Below are positions 32,602-64,000 of a stretch of 64,000 bases of DNA, piece after piece (within the stretch, counting starts at the first letter, position 1; every line of letters starts with the position of its first letter). The notes under the pieces are model-generated. The model was not told the origin of the DNA. It worked only from the letters and a program-made list of their open reading frames with translations, and ran no database searches. The translations under genes were made by a program, and so were the position numbers. The DNA comes from an uncultured bacterium (GTDB lineage: Bacteria > Krumholzibacteriota > Krumholzibacteriia > Krumholzibacteriales > Krumholzibacteriaceae): NCBI GenBank assembly GCA_963813815.1, contig CAWFAD010000012.1, forward strand, positions 32,001 to 96,000, read 5' to 3'.

Positions 32602-33942
32602 TCACGACAGAAGCTTTCCCGCTTCCCTCGCGAGCCGCTCCGCCTCCTCGGCGGATGCCGCCTCCGCGATGACCCTCACCACGGGCTCCGTATTCGACCT
32701 GCGCAGATGTATCCACCCCATGGGCATATCAATTCTTATACCATCCGACGCGCAGGCCTCTCCCGGGAAACGCTTTTCCGCTTCTTTTTTCACCCGCTCG
32801 AAATCGCCGGCGAACGAGAACTTGTCCTTGACGATGTGGTAGCGCGGGTAGGAGGCGACCTTGTCGGCGAGCGAGACTCCCTCCTCCGCCAGCGCCTGCA
32901 GCGCGAGGGCGGCTCCGAGCATCGCGTCGCGGCCGTAGTGGAGGGGCGGATAGATGACCCCACCGTTCCCCTCGCCCCCGATCGCCGCGCTCCGCTCCTT
33001 CATGAGGGCGATGACGTTCGCCTCCCCCACTTTCGACCGAAACACGGGAACGCCGTGCCGCTTTCCCAGATCGTCGATGATGCGCGAGGTCGAGAGGTTC
33101 GCGACGAGCGGTCCCTTTTCCCTCGAGAGCACGAAATCCGCCGCCACGGCGAGCGTGAGCTCCTCGCTGCACACAAACCCCGTCCCGTCGACGAGCACGA
33201 GGCGGTCGGCGTCCGGATCGCACGCGAAGCCGATGTCGGCCCGCTCGCGAACGACCGCGCGAGACAGATCGACGAGGTTCGCCGGACGCGGCTCGGGCTC
33301 GTGTGGGAACGGCTCATCGACGCTCGTGAAGAGCTCCACGACCGTGACGCCGAGCTCCCGGAGCAACGCCGGCAGGATGACGCTCCCCGCGCCGTTCACG
33401 CAGTCGACCACGGCCTTGAAACCCCGCTTCGCGACGCGATCGCGGTCCATGCGTCCGAGCGCGAGAATCCGCCCCACGTGGACGGCGTTTCCCGCCTCGT
33501 TCGCCGCATACCCGCCGAAGGACCGCCTCGCCTCGTACACCGGCGACGCCGCGGCGGAGGTCAGGTCGTCCATCTCCGCGGCCGAGAGAAACTCCCCGCG
33601 GCGGTCCAGAAACTTGAGCGCGTTCCACTCGATGCCGTTGTGGCTCGCCGTGATGATGATCCCGCCCTCGGCCTTGAGCTCGTCGACCATGATCTCGACG
33701 GTCGGGGTCGACGCGATGCCCAGATCGACGGCCGAGCATCCCTCGAAGCGCAGCGCCGAAAACACCGCCGAGGCGAGCGCCGGACCGGAGGGACGGGTGT
33801 CCCGCCCCACGACGACGACGCCGCCGCGGAGCCGCGCGGCGAATGCGGCCGCGTAGCGCAGCGCCGTCCCGGGGTTCATTCCGGGCCCCACGATCCCCCG
33901 CACGCCCGAGACGCCGGCCATGAGATTCGGATTCTGAGCCAT
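32602..33942 (-). CDS. glmM: Phosphoglucosamine mutase / phosphohexomutase
   Basis: SGVRG, ITASHN, DPDADR, GGEGNGG, RRSNTEP; upstream of glmS. Confidence 0.85.
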   Translation of the reverse strand: MAQNPNLMAGVSGVRGIVGPGMNPGTALRYAAAFAARLRGGVVVVGRDTRPSGPALASAVFSALRFEGCSAVDLGIASTPTVEIMVDELKAEGGIIITASHNGIEWNALKFLDRRGEFLSAAEMDDLTSAAASPVYEARRSFGGYAANEAGNAVHVGRILALGRMDRDRVAKRGFKAVVDCVNGAGSVILPALLRELGVTVVELFTSVDEPFPHEPEPRPANLVDLSRAVVRERADIGFACDPDADRLVLVDGTGFVCSEELTLAVAADFVLSREKGPLVANLSTSRIIDDLGKRHGVPVFRSKVGEANVIALMKERSAAIGGEGNGGVIYPPLHYGRDAMLGAALALQALAEEGVSLADKVASYPRYHIVKDKFSFAGDFERVKKEAEKRFPGEACASDGIRIDMPMGWIHLRRSNTEPVVRVIAEAASAEEAERLAREAGKLLS

Positions 33943-34020
33943 CGACACGCTCCGTCCCGCCACCGCGCCCGCGGCGCCGGGCGGTTTGCATTATACGACA
34001 GCCGCCGCCGAGCCGCATAA

Positions 34021-34050
34021 GAAAAATCCCGGCCGCCGGGCGGCCGGGAC
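34021..34050 (-). terminator. Intrinsic terminator ending the por operon
   Basis: TCCCGGCCGC...GCGGCCGGGA hairpin followed by TTTTT on the minus strand. Confidence 0.7.
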
Positions 34051-34076: not shown

Positions 34077-34622
34077 CTATTCCCGCACTTCGGCGTACGC
34101 GCGCATGAACGATTTGAGGTTTCGCGGCCCGACGCGCCCAAAACGCTTCGTGAGGGGTTCCTCGATCGATTCGGGCTTGATGACGCCCGTCATCTTGACC
34201 GCCGCGCCGAGCATCGTCGTGTTCGTAATGGGGCGCCCGAGCTCCTCGACCGCGATTTTCGTCGCGTCGACCGTTGCGACCCGGATATCGGCGTAGCCGA
34301 ACTGTTTCTTGATCTCCTCGGGGCTCTTCGCCGTGTTGACGACGAGAACGCCGCCGGATTTCAGGCCCTTTCGGGGATTCGCGATCCGGAGGAGGCTCTG
34401 GTCGAGCACGATGACGACGTCCGGTTCGTTCACGGCGAACCGGGTCCGGAGAGGCGCATCGTCGACGCGGGAGAACGCGACGACCGGCGCGCCGCGCCGC
34501 TCCGGCCCGAAGCTCGGAAAGCTCTGCGCGTATCTGCCCTCGTTGATGACGGCGACGGCGAGCAACTCGGCGCTCGTCACCGCTCCCTGTCCGCCGCGTC
34601 CGTGAAATCTGATCTCCAGCAT
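34077..34622 (-). CDS. porC: Pyruvate:ferredoxin oxidoreductase gamma subunit
   Basis: EIRFHGRGGQGAVT, FPSFGPERRGAPV, NTTMLGA. Confidence 0.93.
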   Translation of the reverse strand: MLEIRFHGRGGQGAVTSAELLAVAVINEGRYAQSFPSFGPERRGAPVVAFSRVDDAPLRTRFAVNEPDVVIVLDQSLLRIANPRKGLKSGGVLVVNTAKSPEEIKKQFGYADIRVATVDATKIAVEELGRPITNTTMLGAAVKMTGVIKPESIEEPLTKRFGRVGPRNLKSFMRAYAEVRE

Positions 34623-34629
34623 GTTCGTC

Positions 34630-35355
34630 CTACTTTTTTGTCGAACGGCAATCGACGCACGTGTCGAAATGATCTTCCGGAAGGTTCGCGATCTTCCGGA
34701 AATACTCGAGCTGTTTCACCGGGGCGAAATGCTTTCCGCAGACCTTGCATGCGGCCATCGGAAAATCCGTCTTCCAGATGCGCCGCACACCGTCGCGCTC
34801 CTCCATCGGAATGACGCCCACCGGACAGATATAGTGGCACGAGCCGCACGCGATGCAATCCTCCGGCGCCTCCTCGAACGGCGTCGCGACGGCGCGCGTG
34901 TCGCCGCGGCTCTTGAATCCGATCGCCGATACCCCCACGACCTCCCGGCAGACGCGAACGCACTGGCCGCAGAGGATGCACCCCTTGAAGTCGACCGGGA
35001 ACATGCTCTTCTCGATCCCGAGGCTCGAGGCGAGCTCGCGGAGGCGCGGATGCGTCGAGTTCCGCGAGAGGAGCAGGTGCAGAACGAGCCGCCGCACGTT
35101 CAGAACGCGCTCGGTCGAGGTATTCACCTCGAGCCCCTCGGCCACCTCGTGGATGCACGAAACGACGAGGCGCTGGCGCTTCTTGTGCGTAACCTCGACC
35201 ATGCAGAGCCGGCAGGCGCCGTACGGATGGAGCTCCTCGTTGCTGCAGAGGTTGGGGATGTCGATGTTGGCGTCGCGCGCGGCGTCGAGAATCGTCGTCC
35301 CCGCCGCGGCCGTCACCCGCCGTCCGTCGATCGTCAGTGTCACCTTGTCCGCCAT
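34630..35355 (-). CDS. Fe-S subunit, HydA/NuoG N-terminal-like (BfuA-like), no catalytic domain
   Basis: 2Fe-2S (IPNLC...GACRLC...SC), 2x4Fe-4S (CILCGQCVRVC, CIACGSCHYIC), C-terminal CKVC...CVDC; 241 aa, no H-cluster or Mo/W domain. Confidence 0.88.
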   Translation of the reverse strand: MADKVTLTIDGRRVTAAAGTTILDAARDANIDIPNLCSNEELHPYGACRLCMVEVTHKKRQRLVVSCIHEVAEGLEVNTSTERVLNVRRLVLHLLLSRNSTHPRLRELASSLGIEKSMFPVDFKGCILCGQCVRVCREVVGVSAIGFKSRGDTRAVATPFEEAPEDCIACGSCHYICPVGVIPMEERDGVRRIWKTDFPMAACKVCGKHFAPVKQLEYFRKIANLPEDHFDTCVDCRSTKK

Positions 35356-35399
35356 GTCGGTTCCTTTGCCGGGGGCGGCGCGTCCCCGCGCCGCCATCG

Positions 35400-37250
35400 C
35401 TACGAAATGAGTATCGCGTCGAACTTGCAGGCCTCGAAACAGGCCCCGCACTTGATACACGTTTTCTGATCGATCGTATGAGCCTTTTTCTTCTCCCCCG
35501 TTGCCGCCTTCGTCGGGCATACTCGCGCGCACGCCGTGCATCCGGTGCAGGCGTCCGCCGCGACCGTGAAGGCGATGAGCTCCTTGCAGACGCCGGCCGG
35601 GCACTTCCGGTCGCGGATATGCGCGAGGTACTCGTCCTTGAAATGCTTGATGGTGCTCAGCACGGGGAACGGCGCCGTGCCCCCGAGGGCGCAGAGCGAG
35701 CCGTCGATGACCCCCTTGCCGATCCATTCGAGCAGATCGATATCGCTCTCCACTCCCTTGCCCGCGCAGATCCGGTCGAGAATGGCGCGCATCTGGTAGA
35801 CGCCCTCGCGGCACGGCGTGCACTTGCCGCAAGACTCCTGCTCGAGAAACTTGAGGAAATACCTGGCGACGTCCACCATGCAGGTGCGATCGTCCATGAC
35901 GATCATGCCGCCCGAGCCCATCATCGAGCCCACCTTCGAGAGCTCGTCGAAATCGACCGGCATGTCGAGATGCTGCTCGGGGATGCAGCCGCCCGAGGGA
36001 CCGCCCGTTTGTATCGCCTTGAACTTCCGGCCCTTCGGGATGCCGCCGCCGATGCCGAACACGATCTCGCGGAGGGTGATTCCCATGGGGACCTCAACGA
36101 GACCGGTGTTGTTGATCTTGCCGACGAGCGAGAAGATCTTCGTTCCCGTGCTCCCCGCGGTGCCGATCGAGGCGTACCAGTCGGCGCCCTTGCTGATGAT
36201 CGGCGGCACGTTCGCCCACGTTTCGACGTTGTTGAGGCAGGTCGGTTTGTCGTAGAGGCCCCGGTCGGTGGCGTGCACGTACTTCTGACGCGGCTCGCCG
36301 GCCCGCCCTTCGATCGAGGCGAAGAGCGCGGAGGATTCGCCGCAGACGAAGGCGCCGCCGCCGCGGTTGATCTTGATATCGAAGCTGAAATCCGTTCCGA
36401 GGATCCTTTCGCCGAGCAGCCCGTACGCGCGGGCGTTCTCGATCGCAGAGGTGATGTTCGTCACGGCGAGCGGATACTCGTTGCGCACGTAGATGTACCC
36501 GTTGCTCGAGCCGATCGCGAAGGCGCCGATGATCATCCCCTCGAGCACGCTGTGCGGATTGCCCTCGAGGAGGCTTCGATCCATGTAGGCGCCCGGATCC
36601 CCCTCGTCGGCGTTGCAGATGACGTACTTCGGCTCGCCCTCCGCCTTGGCGGTCGATTCCCATTTCCAGCCCGTCATGAAGCCGCCGCCGCCCCGTCCGC
36701 GAAGCTTCGCCCTCGTCACCTCGTTGATGATGTCCCCGGGCTTCATCGCGAGCGCCTTGGCGAGCGCCGCGTAGCCTCCGATGGCGACGTAGTCGTCGAT
36801 GCTCCGCGGATCGATCTGCCCGTTCATGCCGAAGATAAGCCGCATCTGCTTCCGGTAGAAGGGAACGTCGTGCTCGTGGAGGATTTTCTCCTTCGTCACC
36901 GGATCGCGGTACACGAGGCGGTCGATGATTTCGTCCTTGAGCACCGATTTCTCGATGATCTCGCCCGCGTCCTCGGTTTTCACGTGCTGGTAGAATATCT
37001 TCTTCGGCTGGATCACGACAAGCGGTCCGCGCTCGCAGAATCCGTGACAGCCGCTCGTGCGAATCTCGACCTTGTTTCCGAGCCCGCGCTTCTCGATCTC
37101 CGCGCGGAAGTTGTCGATGAGCTTCTGCGTACCGTACGCGAGGCATCCCGTGCCGGCGCATATCACGATGGTCGGCTTTCTCGGGTCGCGCGCGGACGCG
37201 AGCTTCTGCTGGAGCGTCGCGAGCTCTTTCGCCGATTTAAGCTTCTTCAT
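35400..37250 (-). CDS. NAD(H)/FMN-binding subunit, HydB/NuoF-like (BfuB-like)
   Basis: N-terminal thioredoxin-like 2Fe-2S (CAGTGC, GCHGFC), LRGRGGGGF, CNADEGDPGAYMD, GGPSGG, ESCGKCTPCREG, C-terminal 2x4Fe-4S. Confidence 0.93.
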   Translation of the reverse strand: MKKLKSAKELATLQQKLASARDPRKPTIVICAGTGCLAYGTQKLIDNFRAEIEKRGLGNKVEIRTSGCHGFCERGPLVVIQPKKIFYQHVKTEDAGEIIEKSVLKDEIIDRLVYRDPVTKEKILHEHDVPFYRKQMRLIFGMNGQIDPRSIDDYVAIGGYAALAKALAMKPGDIINEVTRAKLRGRGGGGFMTGWKWESTAKAEGEPKYVICNADEGDPGAYMDRSLLEGNPHSVLEGMIIGAFAIGSSNGYIYVRNEYPLAVTNITSAIENARAYGLLGERILGTDFSFDIKINRGGGAFVCGESSALFASIEGRAGEPRQKYVHATDRGLYDKPTCLNNVETWANVPPIISKGADWYASIGTAGSTGTKIFSLVGKINNTGLVEVPMGITLREIVFGIGGGIPKGRKFKAIQTGGPSGGCIPEQHLDMPVDFDELSKVGSMMGSGGMIVMDDRTCMVDVARYFLKFLEQESCGKCTPCREGVYQMRAILDRICAGKGVESDIDLLEWIGKGVIDGSLCALGGTAPFPVLSTIKHFKDEYLAHIRDRKCPAGVCKELIAFTVAADACTGCTACARVCPTKAATGEKKKAHTIDQKTCIKCGACFEACKFDAILIS

Positions 37251-37746
37251 CGGTTTCTACCTTTTTCCCGAGGGCGGCGAGCACCTTGTTCGTCTTGGCG
37301 ATCGTGATTTGGCCGTGATACTCGTCGTTCACGACGAGTATGGGGCCGAGCGCACAGGCGCCGAGGCAGTTCACCGTCTCAAAGCTGAACTCTCGATCGC
37401 TCGTCGTTTCGCCCGAAGCGATGCCGAGCGTGCGTGCGATGTGGTCAGCGATCTGCGGGGCCCCGCGAACGTGGCACGCCGTTCCGAGACAGAGGCTCAG
37501 GCGGTAGCGGCCTTTCGGCGCGAGACTGAACGCGCGGTAGAAGGTCGCGAGGTGGTACACGAGACTCCGCGTCACGCCGAGACTCTCGACGAGAGCGTCG
37601 AGCGCCTCTCTCGGGAGGTAATTGAACTCCCGCTGGATATCCTGCATGATGGGGATCACGAAGCTCTTGTCGCGCCCGTACCGCGCGACGATCTCGTCGA
37701 CCTTCGCTCCCACGGCATCGTTTCGTTTCGATCGGCTCGCTTCCAT
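37237..37746 (-). CDS. 2Fe-2S subunit, HydC/NuoE-like (BfuC-like)
   Basis: LATFY, CLGTACHVRG, CLGACALGP. Confidence 0.93.
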   Translation of the reverse strand: MEASRSKRNDAVGAKVDEIVARYGRDKSFVIPIMQDIQREFNYLPREALDALVESLGVTRSLVYHLATFYRAFSLAPKGRYRLSLCLGTACHVRGAPQIADHIARTLGIASGETTSDREFSFETVNCLGACALGPILVVNDEYHGQITIAKTNKVLAALGKKVETDEEA

Positions 37747-37795
37747 GGCTCGCTCTTTCCTGAGGTCGTCCTCTCTGCATCGACTCCCGCGCGCG

Positions 37796-38719
37796 CTAGA
37801 GCTCGGCTCTCGCGCGGAGCTTCTCCCATTCCCCCGTGACGCGACTCTGTATCTTCTCGATGAGCTCGGGCGTCAGATGGCGGAACCGCCCCTGAGGCTT
37901 GAGGTAGTCCGCGACCGGCCGCAGCGCGGGAACGTCGACCGTGATTCGGTACCGCCCCTTCTCGACTTCGTAGAGCGGGAACACACCCGTCTCGACGGCC
38001 AGCCGCCCGATCCAGATCGCCTTTTCGCTCGGAAGCCCCCATCCCGTCGGACACACGGAGAGTATATGAATGTAGGCGGGGCCGCCGGCCTTCGCCGCCT
38101 TCTCGACCTTCTTCATGAGATCGAAGGGGTAGCTCGAGCACGCCGTCGCGACGTAGGGGATGCCGTGCGCGGCCGCGATCTCCGGCATGTTCTTCTTCCA
38201 CGTGACCTGCCCGGCCTTTATCTTGCCCGCCGGCGAGGTGGTCGTCGAGGCGCCGAACGGCGTTCCCGAGGATCGCTGCACGCCGGTGTTCATGTAGGCC
38301 TCGTTGTCGTAGCAGACATAGATGAAGCGATGCCCTCGCTCGAATGCGCCCGAAAGCGCCTGCAACCCGATGTCGCTCGTTGCGCCGTCGCCGCCCATGC
38401 CGAGGAAGATCGTCCCCTTCTCGGGGATCGCGCCCTTGCGCACGAGCGCGCGGTAGGCGCCCTCGGCCCCCGTCGCGACCGCCGCGGCGTTTTCGAACGC
38501 GACGTGAATCCAGGGCACTCGCCAGTTGGTGAAGGGGAACGGCGAGGAGATGATCTCCATGCACCCCGTGGCCGAAGCGACGACGACGTTCTGCCCGAGC
38601 GCCTTTGCGACGAGCCGGACGGCGAGCGCTTCCGCGCACCCCTGACAGGCGCGATGTCCCGGGGCGAAGTACTCGCGCTTCGTGACGAGCCTCGAGGCGT
38701 ATACGTTGAGCGATTCCAT
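37796..38719 (-). CDS. porB: Pyruvate:ferredoxin oxidoreductase beta subunit (TPP-binding)
   Basis: [41 protein letters not shown]. Confidence 0.93.
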
Positions 38720-39903
38720 TACTCTCTCACCCCGTAGAAGATATAATCTTCCTGCCGGATCGGCGCGCCGGAAGCGACGAGCTCCTCCGTTTTCGCGTAC
38801 ATCTTGATGAAGTCTTCCGGCGTAACGTCGCGGCCGGCGAATCCCGCGAGGAAATTGGTGATCGCCGGCTTCTGCTTCTGCTCATAGAGCGCCGCGCGGA
38901 TCTCGCTCGCCACCGGCCCGCCGGGACCGCCGTACGATATCGCCCGGTCGATAACGATGAGCTTTTTCACGCCCTTCACCGCGTCGCGGAGCTCGTCGAA
39001 CGGAAACGGGCGCCAGAGGCGAAGCCGTATCTGCCCGACCGGCTTTCCCTGCTCGCGAAGGCGGTCGACCGCGATCGACGCGGTCTCCCCGAAGCTTCCC
39101 ATCGTGACGATCGCCGTCTCGGCTCCGTCCATCTTGTAGGTTTCAACCGACTTGTACGCGCGACCGGTGATCTTCGCGATCTCGTCCCACGCCTTCATGA
39201 TGACCGGCCTCGCGGCGAGGAGCGCCGCGTCCTGCGCCTTTTTCGTTTCGGCAAAAATGTTCGGAATGCCGAAGGCGCCCAGCGTGACGGGAGCGTCGGG
39301 AGTGAGCACGTTGACCGGTTTGAAGGGAGGAAGGTAACGCGCGGCCTGCTCCTTGTCCCAGTACTCGATGGCCTCGATGACGTGCGTCACGATGAACCCG
39401 TCGATGTTGATCATGACCGGTATCGAGACCGCCGGATCTTCGGCGACGCGAAAGGCGTAGAGCACGTGGTCGAAGAGCTCCTGCCCGTTGTCGGCGAACA
39501 CCTGTATCCAGCCGCAGTCGCGCACCGACATCACGTCGGTGTGATCGTTCCAGATGCTCAGGGGTCCCGAAAGCGAGCGGTTCGCGAGGATCATCACGAT
39601 CGGGAGCCGCAGGCTCGCCGCGATGAACACGATCTCGTTCATGAGGGCGAGCCCCTGCGCGCTCGTGCAGGTGAAGGTGCGCGCCCCCATCGCGGAGGAG
39701 CCGCAGCACACGCTCATCGCCGAATGTTCCGATTCGACCGGTATGAACTCGGCGTCGAGCTCTCCCTCGGCGACGAGCTCGGCGAGGTGCTCGACGATGT
39801 GCGTCTGCGGGGTGATCGGATACGCCGCGACGACGTCGACGTTCGCCAGGGCGACCGCCTCCGCCGCGGCGATCGAGTTTTCGATTCCGACGCGTTTCGG
39901 CAT
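38719..39903 (-). CDS. porA: Pyruvate:ferredoxin oxidoreductase alpha subunit
   Basis: [38 protein letters not shown]. Confidence 0.93.
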
Positions 39904-40209
39904 TTATTCCTCCGCCTCCTCCGCCATCGAGATGCAGCCCGTGATGCATTCCTGCGCGCAGATGCCGCAACCCTTGCAGTAGTAGAGGTCGGCCTCGAAG
40001 TAGCCTTCCTCATTCTTGCGGACCGCCGCGTCGGGACAGAAGAGGTAACAGACGCCGCACTTGACGCAGCGGGAATGATCCCACAGGGGCCGGATGGAGC
40101 GCCAGTCGCCGGTCCTATACTGCGCGGCGTTGCCGGCGTCGGAGACCGCGCAGCCGATCTCGATGTCTTTCCACCCGAGTTCTTCTTCCGATTTGACCGG
40201 CTTTTTCAT
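39904..40209 (-). CDS. porD: Pyruvate:ferredoxin oxidoreductase delta subunit
   Basis: TGDWRSIRP, CVKCGVCYLFCPD, YCKGCGICAQEC. Confidence 0.93.
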   Translation of the reverse strand: MKKPVKSEEELGWKDIEIGCAVSDAGNAAQYRTGDWRSIRPLWDHSRCVKCGVCYLFCPDAAVRKNEEGYFEADLYYCKGCGICAQECITGCISMAEEAEE

Positions 40210-40284
40210 GTCACTCCCCCGCGCTTCAGGGACGAAAAGCCCTCCCGACCCGATTCCCCGCCGTGAACGAAAAAAATTAGGCGA

Positions 40285-40313
40285 AATATACTCTCTTCGC
40301 CGCGCACCTTCAA
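40285..40313 (-). promoter_or_regulatory. Sigma70-type promoter of the por-bfu operon
   Basis: TTGAAG-17-TATATT. Confidence 0.6.
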
Positions 40314-40356
40314 GCGGAAACGGCGGGGGCCGCGCCCCCGCCGTCCGCCTGCGAGC

Positions 40357-42315
40357 CTACTGGCGTTCCTCGAGGAGATGCTCGACGACGTGCGGGTCGG
40401 CGAGCGTCGTCGTATCGCCGACCTCGGTGCTGCCGGTCGCGATGACTTTGAGGATGCGACGCATGATCTTGCCGCTGCGCGTCTTCGGGAGCGCGTCGGC
40501 GAACTGTATCTTGTCGGGCTTCGCGATGGGCCCGATCATTTTCGAGACGTGGTTGCGAAGCTCTTCCTTGAGCTTGTCGCTCTTGTCGAACCCGCCGGTG
40601 AGCGTGACGAACGCGTAGAGCCCCTCGCCCTTGATCTCGTGCGGCATCGGCACGACCGCCGCCTCGGCGACCGCCTCGTGGCTCACGAGGGCGCTCTCGA
40701 CTTCCATCGTTCCGATCCGGTGGCCCGAGACGTTGATCACGTCGTCGACGCGGCCCATGAGCCAGAAATAGCCGTCCTCGTCCTTGCGCGCGCCGTCGCC
40801 CGTGAAGTACACGCCCTTGTAGCGGCTGTAGTACTGATCCTGGTACCGCTGGTCGTCGCCCCACACCGTGCGGAGCTGTCCCGGCCACGGCTTCTCGATG
40901 ATGAGATAGCCGCCTTCGTTCGTGTCGCACGGCGAGCCGTCCTCGCGGACGACCTTGGGGAACACGCCCGGGAACGGCAGCGTCGCTGAGCCCGGCTTCA
41001 GCGGGAACGCGCCGGGAAGCGGCGTGATGAGGATGCCGCCCGTTTCCGTCTGCCACCACGTGTCGACGATCGGGCAGCGTTCCTTGCCGATCACCCGGTA
41101 GTACCACATCCAGGCCTCGGGATTGATCGGCTCGCCGACCGAGCCGAGGAGGCGCAGGCTCGAGAGGTCGTTCTTCGCCGGCCATTCGTCGCCGTCGCGC
41201 GCGATCGCGCGGATGGCGGTCGGCGCGGTGTAGAAGACCGACACTTTGTACTTCGAAACAACCTTCCAGAAACGATCCGGCTCGGGATAGCTCGGAACGC
41301 CCTCGAACATGACGGTCGTCGCGCCGTTCGAGAGCGGCCCGTACACGATGTACGAGTGGCCGGTGATCCAGCCGATATCGGCGGTGCACCAGTAGATGTC
41401 TTCCTCGCGCAGATCGAAGATGAGCTTGTTCGTCATGGTCACGTACACGAGATAGCCGCCCGTCGTGTGGACGACGCCCTTCGGCTTGCCCGTCGTGCCG
41501 CTCGTGTAGAGAATGAACGAGAGGTCCTCGGCTTCGACGTGCGTCGGCTCGCAGGTTTCGGAGACCTTCGCCATCTCCTCGTGCCACCAGAAGTCTTTGC
41601 CCTTGTTCATCGTGACATCGAGCCCCGTGCGCTTGACGACGATCACGTGCTCGATCGTCGGGCAGGCGCCGAGAACGGAATCGGCTCCGGTCTTGAGCGG
41701 CACAGCCTTGCCCCGGCGGTAGCTCCCGTCGCTCGTGATGAGCATCTTGGCGCCCGCGTCGATGATGCGGTCCTTGAGCGATTCGGCGCTGAAGCCGCCG
41801 AACACGATCGAGTGGATCGCGCCGATGCGCGTGCAGGCGAGCATCGCGATCGCGAGCTCGGGGATCATCGGAAGGTACAGGTTGACCCGATCGCCCTTCT
41901 TGATCCCGTGCGCCTTGAGGACGTTCGCGAACTTGCTGACCTCGCGATGGAGCTCCTTGTACGTGTACTTTTTCGAATCGGTGAGCGGCTCGCCTTCCCA
42001 GATGAGGGCGATCTTGTCGCCCTTCGTCTTGAGGTGCCGGTCGAGGCAGTTATAAGAGATGTTGGTCGTGCCGCCGGAGAACCATTTCACGAAGGGGGCT
42101 TTGCCGTAGTCGAGCACCTTGTCCCACTTCTTGAACCAGTGAATACAGTTCGCCTGCTCGGCCCAGAAACCCTCGAGATCCTTCTCGGATTTGCCGTAGA
42201 GCTTCTTGTACTCATCCATGCTCTTGATGTGAGCCTTCTCGACGAAGCTCTTCGGGGGATTGAAAACCCGGCGCTCATCGAGCATCGAAGTGATGGTTTT
42301 CCTCTCCGCTGCCAT
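40357..42315 (-). CDS. acs: Acetyl-CoA synthetase (AMP-forming)
   Basis: [42 protein letters not shown]. Confidence 0.97.
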
Positions 42316-51521: not shown

Positions 51522-51558
51522 TGAAAACGGCAGCCCATTCACTGGGCTGCCGTTTTCA
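51522..51558. terminator. Bidirectional terminator between convergent genes
   Basis: Perfect 16-bp stem TGAAAACGGCAGCCCA/TGGGCTGCCGTTTTCA, 5-nt loop. Confidence 0.8.
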
Positions 51559-53914
51559 CATCCGCTTCTGCTCCGGGGAAACCGATGCGGCTCAAAATCT
51601 CCCACCAGCGCGGATCGGAACGCAGGCTGTCGAAGTACGGCTCGCTGTTCATGGACATTATTTGTATTGAGCGCGCCTGCAACGACTTTCTCAGGCAGGC
51701 AAATGCATTATCCCTATCGCCGAGCCCTGCGTACACCATGGCGGCTCCGTAAGGGTCGACGAACGCCTCCGCGGACTCCTTCTCGTACTCACGGAGCTCA
51801 CGGCGCGCGATCTCGCGCTTCCCGGCGACGGCGTACACGAATCCCGTCTGGCCGTCGAAACGGCCGGAGTATTTCGTCTCCAGAGTGTCGCATTGGGCCA
51901 ATGCCTCGTCGAACTTTCCCTGCGCCGCAAGGCTCGTGGCGAGAAATATTCGCGAGACGTCGGCCAGCGTCGCCTTCGGCTCCATGGCGATATGCCGCCG
52001 CAGAGTGGCGTTGGCGTCGTCGTATCGTTTCGCATAAAAATACGTCCATCCGAGAAAGCTGATCGAATAGGCGGAAGATGCGTCGAGCTCGCACTGACGC
52101 TGCGCGAGATCGAGAGCCTCGTCGGTTCTCAACGCGGCCGCGAGATAGAGGATATAGTTTTTGAGCACCGGGATACTGCTTGGATTGAGCTCCAGGGCCC
52201 GTTTGTATTCGGCGTCCGCCGTCGACCAATTCCATTCGAAGAGGAATTTCGCGAGGGCGAGCGCCCCATGCGCTTCCGCGGACCGCCCGTCGAGCTGCAC
52301 CGCTTTCTCCGCCGCGCGCAGGGCGTCGGTCGCGATCTCCCCCGGCGCGGCCTGTCCGTAGACGCATAGCATGCTGAGCGCATCGGCAAGCCCGGCGTTC
52401 GCGGGAGCGAAAGCAGGATCTATCTCGATTGCCCGTTGAAACAGATCCGCGGCGGCGCGGTTCTTGGCACCGAGCAGCTCCGCGATTCCCCTCAAGTAAG
52501 CTTCCATGGCCTCGGGATCGGAGGATCCGACGCCTGCAAGAATTTGCCGCTGCTCCGGCGTGAGCTTCGCCTTGATCTCGCGGGCGATCGATTCGGCTAT
52601 TTCGTTCATCACGATCAGCGCGTCCTGCAGATCCCGGCGATAGCTGTTCTGCCAGATCACCCGGTCCCGTTGAGCGCTGTAGAGCTTCGCCGTTATGACC
52701 ATCCTCCTTCCATCGACGGTCAGCTCCGCCTCGACGAGTCCCTTCGCTTTGCTTTTTCTGCCGATTTCCTTGAGAGACTCGGCGCTTGCTTCGAATCGCC
52801 TCATGGTTCGATTCGAAATGACATTTACGCCGATCGATCCGAGGCTCACCGCGAGGCGATCGGTGAGACTGGCAGCCAGAAACGCCTTGTCGGGATCCTC
52901 CGAGCGATACTCGATGGGCAGCACGCCGATCGAATCTATCCTTTCGACCTTCGGGGCGAGGAGCGCGAGGCTACCCACTATGATCCCCGAGATGACAACC
53001 GCAGCCGCCGCGATGACCGCCGCGCGCTGCCAGGGACGGGCGCGGCGCCAGACTCGCTTGAGCCCTTTCGCGGGCGCAGCCTTCCCGGCGGGAAGCGCCT
53101 CCCGGTCTTTGGCCAGCGCATCGAGGTCGGCAACGAGCTCCTCCGCCTTCTGATACCTCCGCGCCGGGTCCCTCGCCAGCGCCTTGGCGACGATCCCATC
53201 GAGACCGGCGGGGATATCTCCGCCCTCTTTCGCAAGCGACGGCGCATCCTCGTTCAGAATCGAATACAGCAGCGCCGCTTCGTAGTCCGCCCCAAACGGC
53301 ATCCGCCCCGACACCATCTCGTACAGCACCACGCCCAACGCCCAGATGTCGCTTCGATGATCCGCCTCCCTCCCCTGCACCTGCTCCGGCGACATATAGG
53401 CCACCGTCCCCATCGTCGTCCCCGTCCGCGTGAGCTTCGTCGCGCCCGAGACCTTCGCCAAACCAAAGTCCATGAGCATCGGCCTGCCCTCGGCCGTCAG
53501 CATCACGTTCGCGGGCTTGATGTCTCGGTGAACGATGCCTTTGGCGTGGGCAGCGGCGAGGCCATCCCCGATCTGCCGGGCGATCGAGAGCGCCTCATCG
53601 AGGGGGAGCGCGCCTTCACCGATACGATCCTTGAGGCTCCGCCCCTCGATGTGAGCCATAGCAATGAATGTCCGGCCTTCCGCCTCGGCGATCTCGTAGA
53701 CGGGGCAAATGTTGGGGTGAAGGAGCGCCGCGGCCGCCCGGGCCTCGTGCACGAGCCGGGCGCGGTCTTCATCGCGAGCTATAGAGTCAGGAGGAAGAAA
53801 CTTGAGCGCCACGGTCCGGCCGAGGGTGAGATCTTCCGCCCGATAGACCACGCCCATCCCCCCCTCGCCGAGCTTCGAGAGAACGCGATAGTGTCCTATG
53901 GTCCGCCCGATCAT
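51539..53914 (-). CDS. Membrane Ser/Thr protein kinase with TolB-like and TPR C-terminal region (copy 1)
   Basis: GEGGMG, VALK, HRDIKPAN, DFG, YMSPEQ; TM; SIGVLP; TPRs. Confidence 0.93.
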   Translation of the reverse strand: MIGRTIGHYRVLSKLGEGGMGVVYRAEDLTLGRTVALKFLPPDSIARDEDRARLVHEARAAAALLHPNICPVYEIAEAEGRTFIAMAHIEGRSLKDRIGEGALPLDEALSIARQIGDGLAAAHAKGIVHRDIKPANVMLTAEGRPMLMDFGLAKVSGATKLTRTGTTMGTVAYMSPEQVQGREADHRSDIWALGVVLYEMVSGRMPFGADYEAALLYSILNEDAPSLAKEGGDIPAGLDGIVAKALARDPARRYQKAEELVADLDALAKDREALPAGKAAPAKGLKRVWRRARPWQRAAVIAAAAVVISGIIVGSLALLAPKVERIDSIGVLPIEYRSEDPDKAFLAASLTDRLAVSLGSIGVNVISNRTMRRFEASAESLKEIGRKSKAKGLVEAELTVDGRRMVITAKLYSAQRDRVIWQNSYRRDLQDALIVMNEIAESIAREIKAKLTPEQRQILAGVGSSDPEAMEAYLRGIAELLGAKNRAAADLFQRAIEIDPAFAPANAGLADALSMLCVYGQAAPGEIATDALRAAEKAVQLDGRSAEAHGALALAKFLFEWNWSTADAEYKRALELNPSSIPVLKNYILYLAAALRTDEALDLAQRQCELDASSAYSISFLGWTYFYAKRYDDANATLRRHIAMEPKATLADVSRIFLATSLAAQGKFDEALAQCDTLETKYSGRFDGQTGFVYAVAGKREIARRELREYEKESAEAFVDPYGAAMVYAGLGDRDNAFACLRKSLQARSIQIMSMNSEPYFDSLRSDPRWWEILSRIGFPGAEADVKTAAQ

Positions 53915-53950
53915 TTCGCTTGTCCCGCGGCAGAGTGATCGATCGCCCTT

Positions 53951-56377
53951 CTACTGTTCCATAATGCCGGCTCTCGCCAGCAACCCTTTGTAGCGCGGAT
54001 CTCTTTTGAGGAAGACGAGCCAGGGCGTATTGATTCGCCTCGCAAGATCACGAGGACGATCTGCGTATTCTATCTCGAGAGATGTATACGCTTCAGTGAT
54101 CCTTCCGAGACAGCAATATGCGAATGCCTTTTTGCCGGCAACCTTCTCATGGGCGAGCGCCGATTCTACGTGCGCTCCCTCGCCGAGCCAATAGGAGGCG
54201 GCAGCGAGCGTCGATGGACTCCAGTAGCCTCGCGGCGCCAGAGCGACCACCTCGCGGAAGCATTTCCTCGCCTGGACCGTATCGCCGACATTCACGTACC
54301 AGGCTGCCAGAAGGGCCCTGTGATTTTCGTTTACTGCGGCCGCTATCTCAACATCTCTGAGAGCCTCGCGATACCTGCCTCTTGTCGCGTACACCGAGCT
54401 CCGATAGAGGCGGCTGTACACCTCGGCGCTGTCTTCCGCGATCGCCCGGGTCAGGTAGACGATCGCGCTGTCCATCATGAAGCAATCGAGAAATATGATC
54501 CCGACGCCGCCCGCATACCCGGTGTTCAAGGGATCAAGCATCTGCGCGAGCTTCGCTTCGCTCACCGCCTTGTCGCAATCGCCCTCCATCGAGAGGAAAA
54601 ACGCATAGCTGTTGTGAAACGCCGCCAGGTTCGGATCGAGAGCGAACGTCCGCTGGAAAAGCTCTTCCGCTGCCGCGGAATCGGCCTCGAAGGAATACTT
54701 GTAATCGGCGAGAGCTCCGAGCGCCTCGGGCAGGTTCGGATCGAGCGCGAGCGCGCGGTCGATGTTGAGCTTCGCCTTGGGAACGGCCTCCTCGGCCGGG
54801 AGGATATCAACCCAGGCATAGACGCTGTAGGCGAATGCGAGCCCGGCATATGCCTCGGCGAACGTGGAATCGATCGCGACCGCTCTTTCGAGATACTCTA
54901 TCGCCTTCGATGCACTGTCGACATCCGTCCTGGAACGATAACCCATTCCCAACAGGTAGGCTTGCATGGCTTTGGGATTCACGGGGCGCCTCGCCGCAAG
55001 CGATGCCCGGCTTCCCGCTCGCATCTCGACGCCAAGCGCAGTCGCCACCTCACGCGCCACTTCATCGAGACGCTGGTGCAGATTTTGCATGTCACAGCTG
55101 AGGGTGCGAGCGTAAAGCTGCCTATCCTTCGCTGCTTCGTAAACCTGGATGCTCAGCCGCACGGCGTTCCCCGAAAATATGCACGAGCCCGTGATCAACG
55201 CTCTTGCATCCACCTTCCGGGAAATCTTGTCCATCGGCAGGTCGCTCCCCTTGAATTCCATCATCGTCTGCGGTGATCGAATCTGAACTCCTTCGAGGGA
55301 TCCGAGCGCGCCTGAGAGAACGATTTCGAGCCCATTGATCATTTCATCCTTCGATAAATCTCCCGTGAGGTTCTTGAGGGGCAGGATGCCGATCGAGTCG
55401 ATCGACTCCGCCCCCGGCGATGATATCTTCATAATCCCGAAGGCGAGGGCCCCCGCGACGATGCAGAGCGCGCCGATAACGGCCGCCCTCTGCCATGGCC
55501 GCGACCGGCGCCAGACTCGCTTGAGCCCTTTCGCGGGCGCAGCCTTCCCGGCGGGAAGCGCCTCCCGGTCTTTGGCCAGCGCATCGAGATCCGCAACAAG
55601 CTCCTCCGCCTTCTGATACCTCCGCACCGGGTCCTTCGCGAGCGCCTTGGCGATGATCCCATCGAGGCCGGCAGGAATGTCTCCGCCCTCCACCGCAAGC
55701 GGCTCCGGATCCTCGTTCAATATCGAATACAGCAGCGCCGCCTCGTAGTCCGCCCCGAACGGCATCCGCCCCGACACCATCTCGTACAGCGCCACGCCCA
55801 ACGCCCAGATGTCGCTTCGATGATCCGCCTCCCTCCCCTGTACCTGCTCCGGCGACATATAGGCCACCGTCCCCATCGTCGTCCCCGTCCGCGTGAGCTT
55901 CGTCGCTCCGGAGACCTTCGCCAAACCGAAGTCCATGAGCATCGGCCGGCCATCGGCCGTCAGCATCACGTTCGCAGGCTTGATGTCGCGGTGCACGATC
56001 CCCTTGGCGTGGGCGGCGGCGAGCGCGTCGGCCGTCTGTCGGGCGATCGAGAGTGCTTCGTCGAGCGGCATCGGACCCTCGGCGATGCGATCCTTGAGGC
56101 TCCGCCCCTCGATGTGGGCCATCGAAATGAACGTGCGCCCATCCGCTTCAGCTATCTCGTGAATCGGGCAGATGTTCGGATGAAGAAGCGCCGCGGCGGC
56201 CCTCGCCTCGTGCACGAGGCGGGCGCGGTCTTCCTCTCGGGCCACCGAATCAGGCGGGAGAAACTTGAGCGCCACGGTCCGACCGAGGGTGAGGTCCTCG
56301 GCCCGGTAGACCACGCCCATCCCCCCCTCGCCGAGCTTCGAGAGAATGCGATAGTGGGAGATCTTCTGTCCGATCAT
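53951..56377 (-). CDS. Membrane Ser/Thr protein kinase with TolB-like and TPR C-terminal region (copy 2)
   Basis: Same kinase motifs; TM; SIGILPLKNL; TPRs; start MIGQKISHY. Confidence 0.93.
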   Translation of the reverse strand: MIGQKISHYRILSKLGEGGMGVVYRAEDLTLGRTVALKFLPPDSVAREEDRARLVHEARAAAALLHPNICPIHEIAEADGRTFISMAHIEGRSLKDRIAEGPMPLDEALSIARQTADALAAAHAKGIVHRDIKPANVMLTADGRPMLMDFGLAKVSGATKLTRTGTTMGTVAYMSPEQVQGREADHRSDIWALGVALYEMVSGRMPFGADYEAALLYSILNEDPEPLAVEGGDIPAGLDGIIAKALAKDPVRRYQKAEELVADLDALAKDREALPAGKAAPAKGLKRVWRRSRPWQRAAVIGALCIVAGALAFGIMKISSPGAESIDSIGILPLKNLTGDLSKDEMINGLEIVLSGALGSLEGVQIRSPQTMMEFKGSDLPMDKISRKVDARALITGSCIFSGNAVRLSIQVYEAAKDRQLYARTLSCDMQNLHQRLDEVAREVATALGVEMRAGSRASLAARRPVNPKAMQAYLLGMGYRSRTDVDSASKAIEYLERAVAIDSTFAEAYAGLAFAYSVYAWVDILPAEEAVPKAKLNIDRALALDPNLPEALGALADYKYSFEADSAAAEELFQRTFALDPNLAAFHNSYAFFLSMEGDCDKAVSEAKLAQMLDPLNTGYAGGVGIIFLDCFMMDSAIVYLTRAIAEDSAEVYSRLYRSSVYATRGRYREALRDVEIAAAVNENHRALLAAWYVNVGDTVQARKCFREVVALAPRGYWSPSTLAAASYWLGEGAHVESALAHEKVAGKKAFAYCCLGRITEAYTSLEIEYADRPRDLARRINTPWLVFLKRDPRYKGLLARAGIMEQ

Positions 56378-59825: not shown

Positions 59826-61334
59826 CTATTTCATCTTCGGAAGCTTCACGAGCCCCTTCTTCTGCAGGAGCTGGAACTTGCTGCGGGACTCCGTGATCAT
59901 CCTGTCGGCCTTGCTGATGAGCTGGTCCCAGGTGAGGTCGATGCGCGCCACGCCCTGCTCGACCGCCTTGCGGCCCACGGCCGCCGCCTCGCGCGGATAG
60001 ACCTCCACTTCGTCCATCGTCGGGATGAGGTAATCCTCGCGAAGCCCCTTGTCCTCGGCGACGCGCGCGAGCTCGCGGGCGGCCGCGATGCACATCTCGT
60101 CGGTGATCGTGCGGGCCATAACGTCGAGCGTTCCGCGGAAGATGCCCGGGAAACCGAGGGAGTTGTTGACCTGGTTCGGGAAGTCGCTACGGCCGGTGGC
60201 GACGACCCTCGCGCCCGCCTCCTTCGCCTCCCACGGCCAGATCTCGGGGATCGGGTTGGCGCAGACGAACACGATCGCGTCCTTCGCCATCCGCGCGATC
60301 CATTCCTTTTTGATCGTGTCGGGGCCCTGCTTCGAAAGGGCGATGAGCACGTCGGCCCCCTCGATCGCGCGCGGCACGTCTCCCGTTCTCCCCTCGCCGT
60401 TCGTCTTCTGCGCCATCTCCCATTTCTCTTTCCAATCCTGCTTGAGCTCCTCCTCGCGGCCGAGGTGGAGGATCCCCTTGCTGTCGCACATGATGACGTT
60501 CTTCGGCGAAACGCCGGCGAGCATGATCATGCGGGCGATGCAGATGTTCGCGGCCCCCGCGCCCACCATCGTCACCTTGACCTTCGAGATATCCTTGCCG
60601 ACGATCTTCACCGCGTTGATGAGACCCGCTACGGTAACTGCGGCCGTGCCCTGCTGGTCGTCGTGCCACACGGGGATGCGGCATTCGCGCCGGAGCGTAT
60701 CGAGAACGCGGAAGCACTTGGGCTGCGAAATATCCTCGAGGTTGATGCCGCCGAAGGAGGGCTGCAGGAGCTTCACGAACTCGATGAGCTTGTCCGGGTC
60801 CTTCGTATCGACGCAGATCGGGAAGGCGTCGACCCCGCCGAGATACTTGAAGAGCATCCCCTTGCCCTCCATGACCGGCAGGCCCGCCTCGGGACCGATG
60901 TCGCCGAGTCCGAGAACGCGCGTGCCGTCCGAGACCACGGCGACGAAGTTCCCCTTGTTCGTGTGCTCGAAAACCTTTTCGGGGTTATCGCGGATATCGA
61001 GGCACGGCTTCGCGACTCCGGGGGTGTACCAGATCGCGAAATCGTCGAAGCTGCGGATGCAGGCCTTCGGCATGATCTCGATCTTCCCCTTGTAGAAGGG
61101 GTGCATGATCATGGCGTCGATCCCGGGCTGCTTGGCCTTCTCGACGAGCTCTTCCTTCGTGACTGGTTTCATGATCTTCGGAGCGGGCTTTTTCGGCGCC
61201 GCTTTCCGCGGGGCCGGTTTCTTGGCGGGCTTCGCCGCCTTTTTCGCGGCCTTCTTCGGGGACTTCTTCACGGCCTTTTTCGGCGTTTTCTTCGCCGGCT
61301 TTTTCTTCGAGGCCTTCGCCTTCTTCGGGCTCAT
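59826..61334 (-). CDS. NAD(P)-dependent malic enzyme with N-terminal Lys/Ala/Pro-rich extension
   Basis: WYTPGVA, VSDGTRVLGLGDIG, VMEGK, INLEDI, HDDQQGTA, GAGAA, ATGRSDFPNQVNNSLGFPG. Confidence 0.94.
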   Translation of the reverse strand: MSPKKAKASKKKPAKKTPKKAVKKSPKKAAKKAAKPAKKPAPRKAAPKKPAPKIMKPVTKEELVEKAKQPGIDAMIMHPFYKGKIEIMPKACIRSFDDFAIWYTPGVAKPCLDIRDNPEKVFEHTNKGNFVAVVSDGTRVLGLGDIGPEAGLPVMEGKGMLFKYLGGVDAFPICVDTKDPDKLIEFVKLLQPSFGGINLEDISQPKCFRVLDTLRRECRIPVWHDDQQGTAAVTVAGLINAVKIVGKDISKVKVTMVGAGAANICIARMIMLAGVSPKNVIMCDSKGILHLGREEELKQDWKEKWEMAQKTNGEGRTGDVPRAIEGADVLIALSKQGPDTIKKEWIARMAKDAIVFVCANPIPEIWPWEAKEAGARVVATGRSDFPNQVNNSLGFPGIFRGTLDVMARTITDEMCIAAARELARVAEDKGLREDYLIPTMDEVEVYPREAAAVGRKAVEQGVARIDLTWDQLISKADRMITESRSKFQLLQKKGLVKLPKMK

Positions 61335-61401
61335 CGATCTACCTCCCGGGGTCAATCCCGACTTCGGAACGCTCGCCGCTCCATATCCGATTCGAACGCT
61401 A

Positions 61402-61950
61402 TTATTTCTCGAGGAGCTCCGCCGCGGCCTTCAGCCCCTCGTCGAACGCCTTCATGTTGAGCTCTTCGGTCCCTTTCGGCACGCGGGCGAGAATGGCCTT
61501 GCGGACCGATTCCTCGGACGCGGCCTGCGAGATTTTCGTGAGAATCCCGAGGGCAACGATGTTCGTCACGACCGCCTTGCCGACCTTCTTCAGCGCGATC
61601 TCGGTGATCGGCGCCTCGTAGAGCCGGTAGTCTCCCTTCGGCAGCTCCTTGACGAGCCCCGAATCGACGATGAGAACGCCGCCGGCCTTGAGGTCCCCGC
61701 TGTACTTCGTGCACGAGACCTGCGTGAGCGCGAGCAGCAGATCGAGGTTCAGCACCTTCGGATAATCGATGTCGCCGTCGCTCGTGACGACCTCGGCCTT
61801 GCTCGCCCCGCCGCGCGCCTCGGGGCCGTAGCTCTGCGTCTGCACGGCGTTGCGCCCGTCGTATATCACGACCGCCTCCGCCAGGATCTTGCCCGCGAGG
61901 ATGAGCCCCTGCCCGCCGGAGCCGCTCAGCCTCATTTCATATCTGTCCAT
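61402..61950 (-). CDS. korC: 2-oxoacid (2-oxoglutarate-type):ferredoxin oxidoreductase gamma subunit
   Basis: SGSGGQGLI, QSYGPEARGGAS, NIVALG. Confidence 0.85.
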   Translation of the reverse strand: MDRYEMRLSGSGGQGLILAGKILAEAVVIYDGRNAVQTQSYGPEARGGASKAEVVTSDGDIDYPKVLNLDLLLALTQVSCTKYSGDLKAGGVLIVDSGLVKELPKGDYRLYEAPITEIALKKVGKAVVTNIVALGILTKISQAASEESVRKAILARVPKGTEELNMKAFDEGLKAAAELLEK

Positions 61951-61968
61951 GCGAAGCTCCTGTTTCCG

Positions 61969-62793
61969 TCAGTCCTTCGATTTCTCGGTTTTCAGCCTTT
62001 GGATGAGCTTGTCGTACTCGGCGCAGAACTCCGGTTTCTCGACGTCCCACAGGACTCCGGACGCGATCTTGCCCACGCGCTCGTCCTCGGCCATCTTGTC
62101 GAGCTTGTCCTTCGTAACGACGTTGTCCTTGAGCCAGTTCATGAGATCGACGGGGTTGGCGAGCTTGTTCCGCCGCCCGTACGCCGTCGGACACGGCGAG
62201 AGGATCTCGACCACGGAGAATCCCTTCTTCGAGAGCGCCGCCGTGATGAGCTTGTCGAGCTGCTGGACGTGGTACACGTCGCCGAGCGCCACGAACGAGG
62301 CCCCCGCCGCCTGCGCGAGCCCCGCGATGTTGAACGACGGCTCGAGGTTCCCGAACGGCGCCGTCGAAGCGTTCTTGCCGCGCGGGGTCGTCGGGGACAC
62401 CTGCCCTCCCGTCATCCCGTAGATGAAGTTGTTGTAGAGGAGCACCGTGAGATCGATGTTGCGTCTCGCCGCATGGATGTAATGGTTCCCGCCGATGGCG
62501 GTCGCGTCCCCGTCCCCCGTCACGACGATCACGTGGAGCTTCGGGCTGGCGAGCTTTACCCCCGTGGCGAAGGCGATCGCGCGCCCGTGCGTCGTATGCA
62601 GCGTGTTGATATCGATGTATCCGGGAGTGCGGCTCGAGCATCCGATCCCCGACACCATCGCGGTCTCGTCCTTCGGGATCCCGAGCTTCTTGAGGGAGCG
62701 GATGAGCGACTTGAGGACGATCCCGTCCCCGCACCCCGAGCACCAGATATGAGGCAGGTTCCGCTCGCGCACGTATTCGAGGTAGTTGAACAT
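61969..62793 (-). CDS. korB: 2-oxoacid:ferredoxin oxidoreductase beta subunit
   Basis: PHIWCSGCG, SGIGCS, HTTHGRA, GDGDATAIGGNH, YGMTGGQ. Confidence 0.88.
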   Translation of the reverse strand: MFNYLEYVRERNLPHIWCSGCGDGIVLKSLIRSLKKLGIPKDETAMVSGIGCSSRTPGYIDINTLHTTHGRAIAFATGVKLASPKLHVIVVTGDGDATAIGGNHYIHAARRNIDLTVLLYNNFIYGMTGGQVSPTTPRGKNASTAPFGNLEPSFNIAGLAQAAGASFVALGDVYHVQQLDKLITAALSKKGFSVVEILSPCPTAYGRRNKLANPVDLMNWLKDNVVTKDKLDKMAEDERVGKIASGVLWDVEKPEFCAEYDKLIQRLKTEKSKD

Positions 62794-62795
62794 CG

Positions 62796-63942: not shown

Positions 63943-64000
63943 CGCCGTCGTCTCCTTTTTCGGGTCGCCCCGCCGCGGGGACGCCCCCATACCCGTCTCG

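Follow-up and report, generated by a model that had tools for sequence, protein, structure and literature searches.

A pyruvate:ferredoxin oxidoreductase operon enclosing a BfuABC module in a genus of Krumholzibacteriota: a predicted Por-Bfu enzyme

In a 64,000-nucleotide stretch of genomic DNA from an uncultured member of the Krumholzibacteriota (assembly GCA_963813815.1, contig CAWFAD010000012.1, positions 32,001-96,000; hereafter the window), the minus strand carries at 34077-40209 a seven-gene operon, porD-porA-porB-bfuC-bfuB-bfuA-porC, in which the four genes of a pyruvate:ferredoxin oxidoreductase (POR) enclose a three-gene module related to NuoEFG and HydABC (Table 1). An initial annotation of the window had described a tight minus-strand unit in this order; all seven open reading frames (ORFs) are present, each gene identity is backed by both Pfam and NCBIfam, and the gaps run 0, -1, 49, -14, 44 and 7 nt, the last being the 7-nt gap before porC that had already been pointed out. 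GC content of the operon is that of the window. The terminator proposed at 34050 corresponds to an 11-pair hairpin (34050-34026), the strongest of 7 sites in the scan (5.0 +/- 2.2 expected). The promoter proposed at 40313-40285 exists as a site, but a scan finds 1 candidate versus 0.9 +/- 1.1 expected, which is chance level when taken alone; its TTG...17 nt...TATATT arrangement is kept, with a variable spacer, in 9/9 aligned sequences of the genus, and a tenth, from the sister genus, differs. Two further elements lie upstream of porD: a G-rich/T-run element in the leader (window 40215-40260), kept across the genus, and a GC-rich hairpin 3' of acs (window 40320-40344) with a three-T tail only, a weak terminator with read-through possible.

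Table 1 Features of the operon and of the genes that flank it
Feature	Position in window	Strand	Basis
porD, delta subunit, 101 aa, 2x[4Fe-4S]	39904..40209	-	Pfam and NCBIfam, TIGR02179 above cut-off
porA, alpha subunit, 394 aa, YPITP motif of POR/VOR	38719..39903	-	Pfam, NCBIfam, solved-structure match
porB, beta subunit, 307 aa, TPP/Mg motif and proximal [4Fe-4S] cysteines	37796..38719	-	Pfam, NCBIfam NF008819
bfuC (NuoE/HydC-like), 169 aa, C1 [2Fe-2S] C86, C91, C127, C131	37237..37746	-	Pfam, motif mapping
bfuB (NuoF/HydB-like), 616 aa, B5 2Fe-2S, FMN/NAD site, B1-B4	35400..37250	-	Pfam, motif mapping
bfuA (short NuoG/HydA-like), 241 aa, A1/A2/A4 clusters	34630..35355 (start 35355)	-	Pfam, motif mapping
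BfuA C-terminal CxxC...CxxC, C203/C206/C233/C236, predicted Wor-type zinc finger	34648..34749	-	motif comparison
porC, gamma subunit, 181 aa, final gene of the operon	34077..34622	-	NCBIfam, trees
sigma70-like promoter candidate, TTGAAG-17-TATATT, upstream of porD	40285..40313	-	promoter scan and genus alignment
intrinsic-terminator-like hairpin, 11 pairs then TTTTTCTT, directly 3' of porC	34026..34050	-	hairpin scan
acs (AMP-forming acetyl-CoA synthetase), resident, upstream edge of site, outside cassette	40357..42315	-
phosphoglucosamine-mutase-type gene (glmM-like), resident, downstream edge of site	32602..33963	-

Cofactor motifs place the operon in the Por-Bfu type

Schut et al. 2022 (PMC9304861) define the Bfu family and predict Por-BfuA-G as a Type 2 enzyme from 12 sequences of Chloroflexi and syntrophic Proteobacteria, in which BfuA lacks A3 and A5; this genome prediction, together with co-expression in one organism, was the earlier support for Por-Bfu. 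Judged by its motifs, the locus is Por-Bfu, the Type 2 BfuABC enzyme of that prediction. Pfam and motif mapping find a 2Fe-2S and two 4Fe-4S domains in BfuA, and neither an A3 motif nor a catalytic domain; the protein thus has the Type 2 composition, without A3, A5 or catalytic domain, and not that of Type 1 (HydABC hydrogenase, Fdh-Bfu, Nfn-Bfu), in which the catalytic domain is fused to BfuA. In Type 2 the third reaction falls to additional subunits, here the four of POR. In WorA the terminal four cysteines form a zinc finger, and the BfuA of Por-Bfu is described as having the zinc finger without the helix after it (PMC12318220). The window BfuA shows the same combination: its zinc-finger motif is followed by only 5 residues after C236, leaving no room for a WorA-type docking helix. 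The traits reported initially for the HydA-like subunit (no catalytic domain, no A3/HxxxCxxC cluster, a terminal CxxC...CxxC) are therefore all to be seen in this 241-aa protein, but the surprise attached to them was overstated, because loss of the catalytic domain and of A3 defines Type 2 and the cysteine motif was already published. WorA (9MQX_A) is the best match of BfuA in both sequence and fold, the fold match being all that was drawn from an AlphaFold2 model (pLDDT 81.7, weak in the cluster-binding part), and WorB (9MQX_B) is the best solved relative of BfuB.

BfuB comprises an N-terminal 2Fe-2S domain, an FMN domain, an NADH_4Fe-4S domain and two C-terminal 4Fe-4S motifs (PF01512, PF10589 and two copies of PF00037 above cut-off; SLBB PF10531 just under it, E 4.5e-05). 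Mapped onto the B2 ligands and F282 of NiFe-HydB (PMC8880783), it keeps all five B2 ligands (C457, C495, H544, C550 and C555). Ligands for B1-B5 could be placed throughout, in agreement with the full cluster set first ascribed to this subunit, and with the C1 ligands of BfuC the predicted ligand set of the BfuABC family is complete. The three motifs associated with bifurcation, A/E-x-M, a Phe near FMN and GGPSG (the Losey criteria, PMC7311640), are present as A221-x-M223, F301 and GGPSG 416-420. Of the residues first singled out, those in GDPGAYMD and GGPSG stand; TKIF does not, as the published Phe is that of GAFVCGE (F301, equivalent to F282 of NiFe-HydB), which is also Phe in the window protein. 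Among 65 POR-linked BfuB sequences A-x-M is found in 65/65, GGPSG in 63/65, the His/Cys B2 site in 62/65, both terminal ferredoxin motifs in 65/65 and the diagnostic Phe in 61/65 (the remaining 4 were not parsed), while among 67 POR-linked BfuA sequences the A3 motif is missing in 67/67 and 65/67 end within 5 residues of the last CxxC.

Gene order, probable transfer of the cassette and probable displacement of NifJ

The closest relatives are labelled Candidatus Krumholzibacteriota/-ia or unclassified, and the next are mostly deltaproteobacterial or Desulfobacterota-type. BfuA orthologues occur in 13/15 other genomes of the genus, the other two having pieces of the cassette at contig ends, and porC follows bfuA in 12/12 genomes with sequence past bfuA. 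A sample of the phylum gave matches (E <= 1e-60) in 8/9 genomes of the genus and 0/141 others. Confinement to one genus nevertheless had to be amended, since acs-porD-porA-porB also stands at the end of a contig in a sister-genus genome (G019, 61% complete). No mention of Por-Bfu in Krumholzibacteriota was found in the literature searched, and the available sections of PMC6129605 and PMC5736913 contain nothing on a POR-NuoEFG linkage. The Krumholzibacteriota genus is new as a Por-Bfu host, and the porC-last order marks the lineage.

Gene order was tallied in 150 loci picked by BfuA similarity, from which ten duplicates had been dropped and in which some near-duplicates stay. Fifty-four are porC-first (porCDAB-bfuCBA), 8 complete and 10 partial loci are porC-last, and 1 is porB-last (L108:2592-8668, porC-porD-porA-bfuC-bfuB-bfuA-porB, then trigger factor- and clpP-like genes); the remainder are 19 of a PorD/PorB-like type and 58 that are truncated, incomplete or without por genes. 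Copies in L039, L046, L064 and L072 carry frameshifts, probably assembly errors. Conserved linkage, raised in the initial annotation as a check, is thus found widely and in three orders, and its remark that the gamma subunit usually leads agrees with the tally. Since porC-first is the commonest order, the nesting in the window is a lineage-specific reordering and not a new architecture, and the porC-last and separate porB-last orders together mean that POR genes came to bracket the Bfu module twice.

Six single-gene trees place the genus with one and the same set of 15 donor-type operons: those of PorA (support 100), PorB (99), PorD (84), BfuA (100), BfuC (99) and BfuB (99, where one non-POR row falls within the group); as the 15 were chosen by identity, this grouping is a consistency check across genes. 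Sharing of the donor-type grouping by six genes argues for a joint transfer of POR and Bfu genes. Of the genomes in the phylum to which a donor-type genome belongs, 107/301 matched a BfuA profile, and 31/40 of the loci sampled from these (20 top-ranked, 20 spread lower) have the full porC-D-A-B-bfuC-B-A operon, which makes Por-Bfu far commoner than published.

PorC differs. The genus does not group with the donor-type operons in the PorC tree, and its PorC is 60% identical to theirs and 59% to distant ones, whereas donor-type PorC proteins are 78% identical among themselves and the other six genes are 63-80% identical to the donor type. A database search shows a drop from porC-last-type matches (at least 73%) to 66% or less. 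Forcing PorC into the donor-type group was rejected narrowly (p-AU 0.043, approximately unbiased test), a borderline value from a quick tree with groups picked after identities had been seen. We conclude that porC was probably replaced by a copy from another por lineage and less probably just relocated, with fast evolution along the stem as a further alternative. Circular permutation of one intact operon is weakened as an origin of the porC-last order by a PorC no closer to donor-type than to distant operons, and the family's own second 2-oxoacid:ferredoxin oxidoreductase (OFOR) was ruled out as a source, its gamma genes being only 42-55% identical.

The cassette lies between acs and glmM. Because acs and glmM are adjacent without an insert in 15/26 genomes of other genera, acs is resident and the adjacency is older than the cassette; proximity to acs was accordingly dismissed as evidence of acetate assimilation. 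A NifJ-type single-chain pyruvate:ferredoxin oxidoreductase (PFOR) occupies the interval between these two genes in 3 genomes and is a direct neighbour of one of the two in a further 3. NifJ was found in 26/26 genomes of 14 other genera and in 0/16 genomes of this genus and 0/1 of its sister. That NifJ was found in none of the genomes of the cassette-bearing genera points to pyruvate as the substrate, and this apparent displacement is the best evidence for it. The ancestor of the two genera may have taken the cassette from a Desulfobacterota-type donor; the cassette would then have occupied the acs-glmM site and displaced the NifJ of the family, with porC ending up last, probably from another por lineage. 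To a Por-Bfu concept that was itself already published, the locus adds evidence of three kinds: por genes bracketing the Bfu module, a probable joint inter-phylum transfer of POR and Bfu genes, and a probable replacement of NifJ at the same site.

Predicted pyruvate oxidation, proposed electron flow and rival readings

We consider it reasonably probable, though well short of certain, that the seven genes encode one Por-Bfu complex that oxidises pyruvate and splits the electrons between NAD+ and ferredoxin. Cluster ligands and bifurcation motifs, WorA and WorB as closest solved relatives, three linked gene orders and shared gene histories support this reading, which the initial annotation had reached and which agrees with the published Por-BfuA-G prediction. 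The gene content of the genome adds to this: no pyruvate dehydrogenase E1 was found, the single glycyl-radical enzyme lacks the Cys-Cys pair that is the motif of pyruvate formate-lyase, and both a free 2[4Fe-4S] ferredoxin (57 aa, G000:C10:174182-174352) and Rnf are encoded. Electrons would pass from thiamine pyrophosphate (TPP) through the proximal cluster of PorB, the two PorD clusters, BfuA A4-A2-A1 and BfuB B1 to FMN, a path modelled on the S4-A4-A2-A1 route of WorABCSL; FMN would deliver one pair to NAD+ and, via C1/B5/B2-B3-B4, the second pair to ferredoxin (Fd), giving in sum 2 pyruvate + 2 CoA + NAD+ + 2 Fd-ox -> 2 acetyl-CoA + 2 CO2 + NADH + 2 Fd-red. With published potentials (pyruvate -500, NAD -280, Fd -500 mV; PMC9304861, Table 1), oxidation yields about -21 kJ per pyruvate and synthesis carries an equal penalty; oxidation is favoured and is the likelier direction. 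The likely gain would be that flux can continue at a high degree of ferredoxin reduction, for which half of the low-potential output would be given up. Should the enzyme bifurcate, present metabolic models of these anaerobes would be wrong, because the products of pyruvate oxidation would be NADH and reduced ferredoxin in equal halves.

In an ordinary POR, ferredoxin binds at PorD/PorB, and it is there that the zinc-finger end of BfuA likely docks. In the 19 loci of the PorD/PorB-like type, the Bfu module stands beside a PorD-like ferredoxin together with a PorB-like protein that lacks the TPP-binding parts, which suggests that PorD and PorB are the coupling parts between POR and Bfu. Members of this family (among them L130:3355-9291, L138:3436-9466, L139, L142, L155 and L194) have a PorD-like 2x[4Fe-4S] protein, a PorB-like protein of ~228 aa with CxxCG and CPxxW and without TPP-binding regions, an extended bfuC, bfuB, a bfuA of 312 aa with zinc finger and extra C-terminal ferredoxin, and a ~440-aa FAD oxidoreductase; neither porA nor porC was detected in the flanks taken. 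The family has the appearance of a POR that decayed but was retained as an electron adaptor serving a new third reaction. A stronger and decidedly tentative reading would make the seven-subunit enzyme obligately bifurcating and the sole route from pyruvate to acetyl-CoA in this lineage, having displaced NifJ in place, with Bfu docked through the BfuA zinc finger on PorD/PorB, PorC exchangeable, and the PorD/PorB plug reused in the POR-less Bfu family as a pure electron adaptor. Were it true, this would be the first TPP-dependent electron-bifurcating enzyme, and bifurcation would have replaced a canonical step of central metabolism.

Several points weigh against the preferred reading of a bifurcating pyruvate oxidoreductase. 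No purified or characterised Por-Bfu was found in the literature searched (subscription journals mostly outside reach), in line with the initial statement that pyruvate-linked members had been predicted from genomes, with no biochemical characterisation known. Because pyruvate is able to reduce ferredoxin by itself, it is not evident what bifurcation would gain. PorB passes the pyruvate-specific NCBIfam NF008819 narrowly (414 bits versus a cut-off of 405), and PorA, PorC and PorD pass no pyruvate-specific cut-off. YPITP is common to VOR as well as POR. The genome has a second four-gene POR/VOR-type enzyme that could also use pyruvate, and the mutual exclusion of NifJ and Por-Bfu is one evolutionary event seen in related genomes that are 61-96% complete. 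The PorC discordance, too, is borderline. Finally, in the BfuB tree, the second Bfu module of the genome (L002) and L051 fall inside the POR-linked radiation without adjacent por genes; BfuB phylogeny is thus not diagnostic of a POR partnership, and placement of the HydB-like protein, recommended initially as a check, does not serve as one. Published Por-Bfu BfuB sequences fall in clades 35, 44 or 45 (PMC9304861); WorB, the best solved match of window BfuB, is placed there in clade 45, which does not by itself assign window BfuB to a published clade.

One alternative interpretation is that POR and BfuABC are co-transcribed yet separate, POR reducing free ferredoxin and BfuABC serving a catalytic module elsewhere. 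Operon linkage does not equal a complex, and BfuB of the same radiation also stands beside non-POR neighbours, but we consider this unlikely because BfuA has neither a catalytic domain nor a WorA-type helix, the module came to be bracketed by por genes twice, in separate rearrangements, six genes share a history, and the genome (91% complete) offers no evident partner: the NiFe hydrogenase sits with Mvh/Hdr genes (MvhD/HdrABC), an Mbh/Mbx-like membrane complex has its own Fe-S/flavin genes, both molybdopterin-family matches lie in their own clusters, and no FeFe hydrogenase was found. A hydrogenase or formate dehydrogenase encoded elsewhere had been named at the outset as the partner that would refute a POR complex; no orphan one needing the BfuABC trio was seen in the genome. 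An aldehyde oxidoreductase is also encoded.

About equally improbable is a single complex that does not bifurcate, either a pyruvate:NAD+ oxidoreductase like the NAD-linked phenylglyoxylate enzyme Pad or an enzyme with loosely coupled NAD and ferredoxin exits. Pyruvate at -500 mV can reduce NAD or ferredoxin alone and the sequence criteria are correlations from few enzymes (PMC7311640), but non-bifurcating homologues lack B2-B5 and the three motifs, all of which are kept here and across the 65 relatives, and Wor-Bfu, with a donor of equally low potential, needs both acceptors (PMC9304861).

A bifurcating complex acting on another 2-oxoacid, in the manner of VOR, is improbable in our estimation. 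In that case pyruvate would be handled by the second four-gene enzyme (L003:5744-10096; G000:C7:338744-343096). Four-subunit POR and VOR are close paralogues that NCBIfam scores separate poorly; the window PorB nevertheless favours the PorB profile (414 versus 342 for VorB) and the L003 beta subunit the VorB profile (396 versus 346 for PorB), and gamma genes at the L003 level (42-55% identical to window PorC) occur across the order with or without NifJ, whereas the cassette replaces NifJ. In L003 the delta subunit forms a fusion with a GltD-like NAD(P)H flavoprotein (559 aa, NF009410 above cut-off), making it another OFOR hard-wired to a pyridine-nucleotide module. A mainly confurcating pyruvate synthase, making pyruvate with NADH and ferredoxin from acetyl-CoA that Acs forms from acetate, is very improbable: acs lies directly upstream in 6/6 informative genomes of the genus and this direction has been suggested for the Por-Bfu of Dehalococcoides (PMC9304861), but acs is resident and its adjacency to glmM predates the cassette, carboxylation with NADH mixed into the donors costs ~21 kJ more per pyruvate than with ferredoxin alone, and no acetyl-CoA synthase was found in the genome.

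Besides the window operon, the genome encodes two Bfu modules, each in a gene neighbourhood of its own, and three further OFOR clusters. The second Bfu module (L002:797-9613; G000:C12, ~104.8-113.6 kb), in the order bfuB-bfuC-bfuA, which recurs in L048, L053 and L054, is followed by a GltD-like/ferredoxin/MvhD fusion, a CCG-domain protein and sarcosine-oxidase-like Fe-S flavoproteins. The third (L004:6292-12333; G000:C16, ~478-484 kb) is of Nfn/Stn type, has a 1229-aa BfuA with GltD-like and molybdopterin-family domains, and has a pair of ADP-forming acyl-CoA ligase genes nearby. At window 59829-64000 and L001:1829-9108 there are two divergent KOR-type OFOR clusters; one of them closes with a malic enzyme whose N-terminal tail is histone-like and rich in Lys/Ala/Pro, and ORF calling did not return the alpha gene at L001:4799-5915 as a single ORF. 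The hydrogenase locus (L075:8446-14834; G000:C5) reads HdrCBA-MvhD-G-A, its large-subunit gene having an in-frame TGA near the N-terminus, possibly selenocysteine, and the Mbh/Mbx-like complex (L076:2074-16614; G000:C16) follows sulfhydrogenase beta/gamma-like genes and an Fdh-alpha-like Fe-S protein. Window 51542-56377 holds Ser/Thr-kinase genes in tandem whose N-termini are nearly identical, with more copies at L001:3-1262 and L076:1-831.

Relation to known enzymes

The HydABC and NiFe-HydABCSL hydrogenases (8A6T, 7Q4V, 7T2R) share the BfuBC core, down to the five NiFe-HydB B2 ligands, all conserved in window BfuB, but the window operon has no H-cluster, A3/A5 or hydrogenase subunit. For PorA and PorB the best solved relatives are a four-subunit PFOR (9BT4, the closest; 9BT4_B for PorA) and oxalate oxidoreductase (5C4I), both of them stand-alone, ferredoxin-dependent enzymes without a Bfu module; oxalate oxidoreductase has YPIRP where window PorA has YPITP. 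WorABCSL of Acetomicrobium mobile (PDB 9MQX), for which bifurcation has been shown, shares with the window module the lack of A3, the zinc finger and a donor of low potential. Its catalytic part is the tungstopterin enzyme WorSL, whereas the window has a TPP-dependent POR, with neither the C-terminal docking helix nor the WorS nanowire, and the semi-conserved B2 ligand that is Thr in WorB is Cys (C495) in window BfuB. The nearest likeness is to Por-Bfu as predicted in PMC9304861, with four POR subunits and BfuABC, a BfuA with A1, A2 and A4 only, and a zinc finger without the helix. The Krumholzibacteriota host lies outside the two phyla listed in that article, porC stands last with a discordant PorC, and the evidence here favours pyruvate oxidation and displacement of NifJ over gluconeogenic synthesis.

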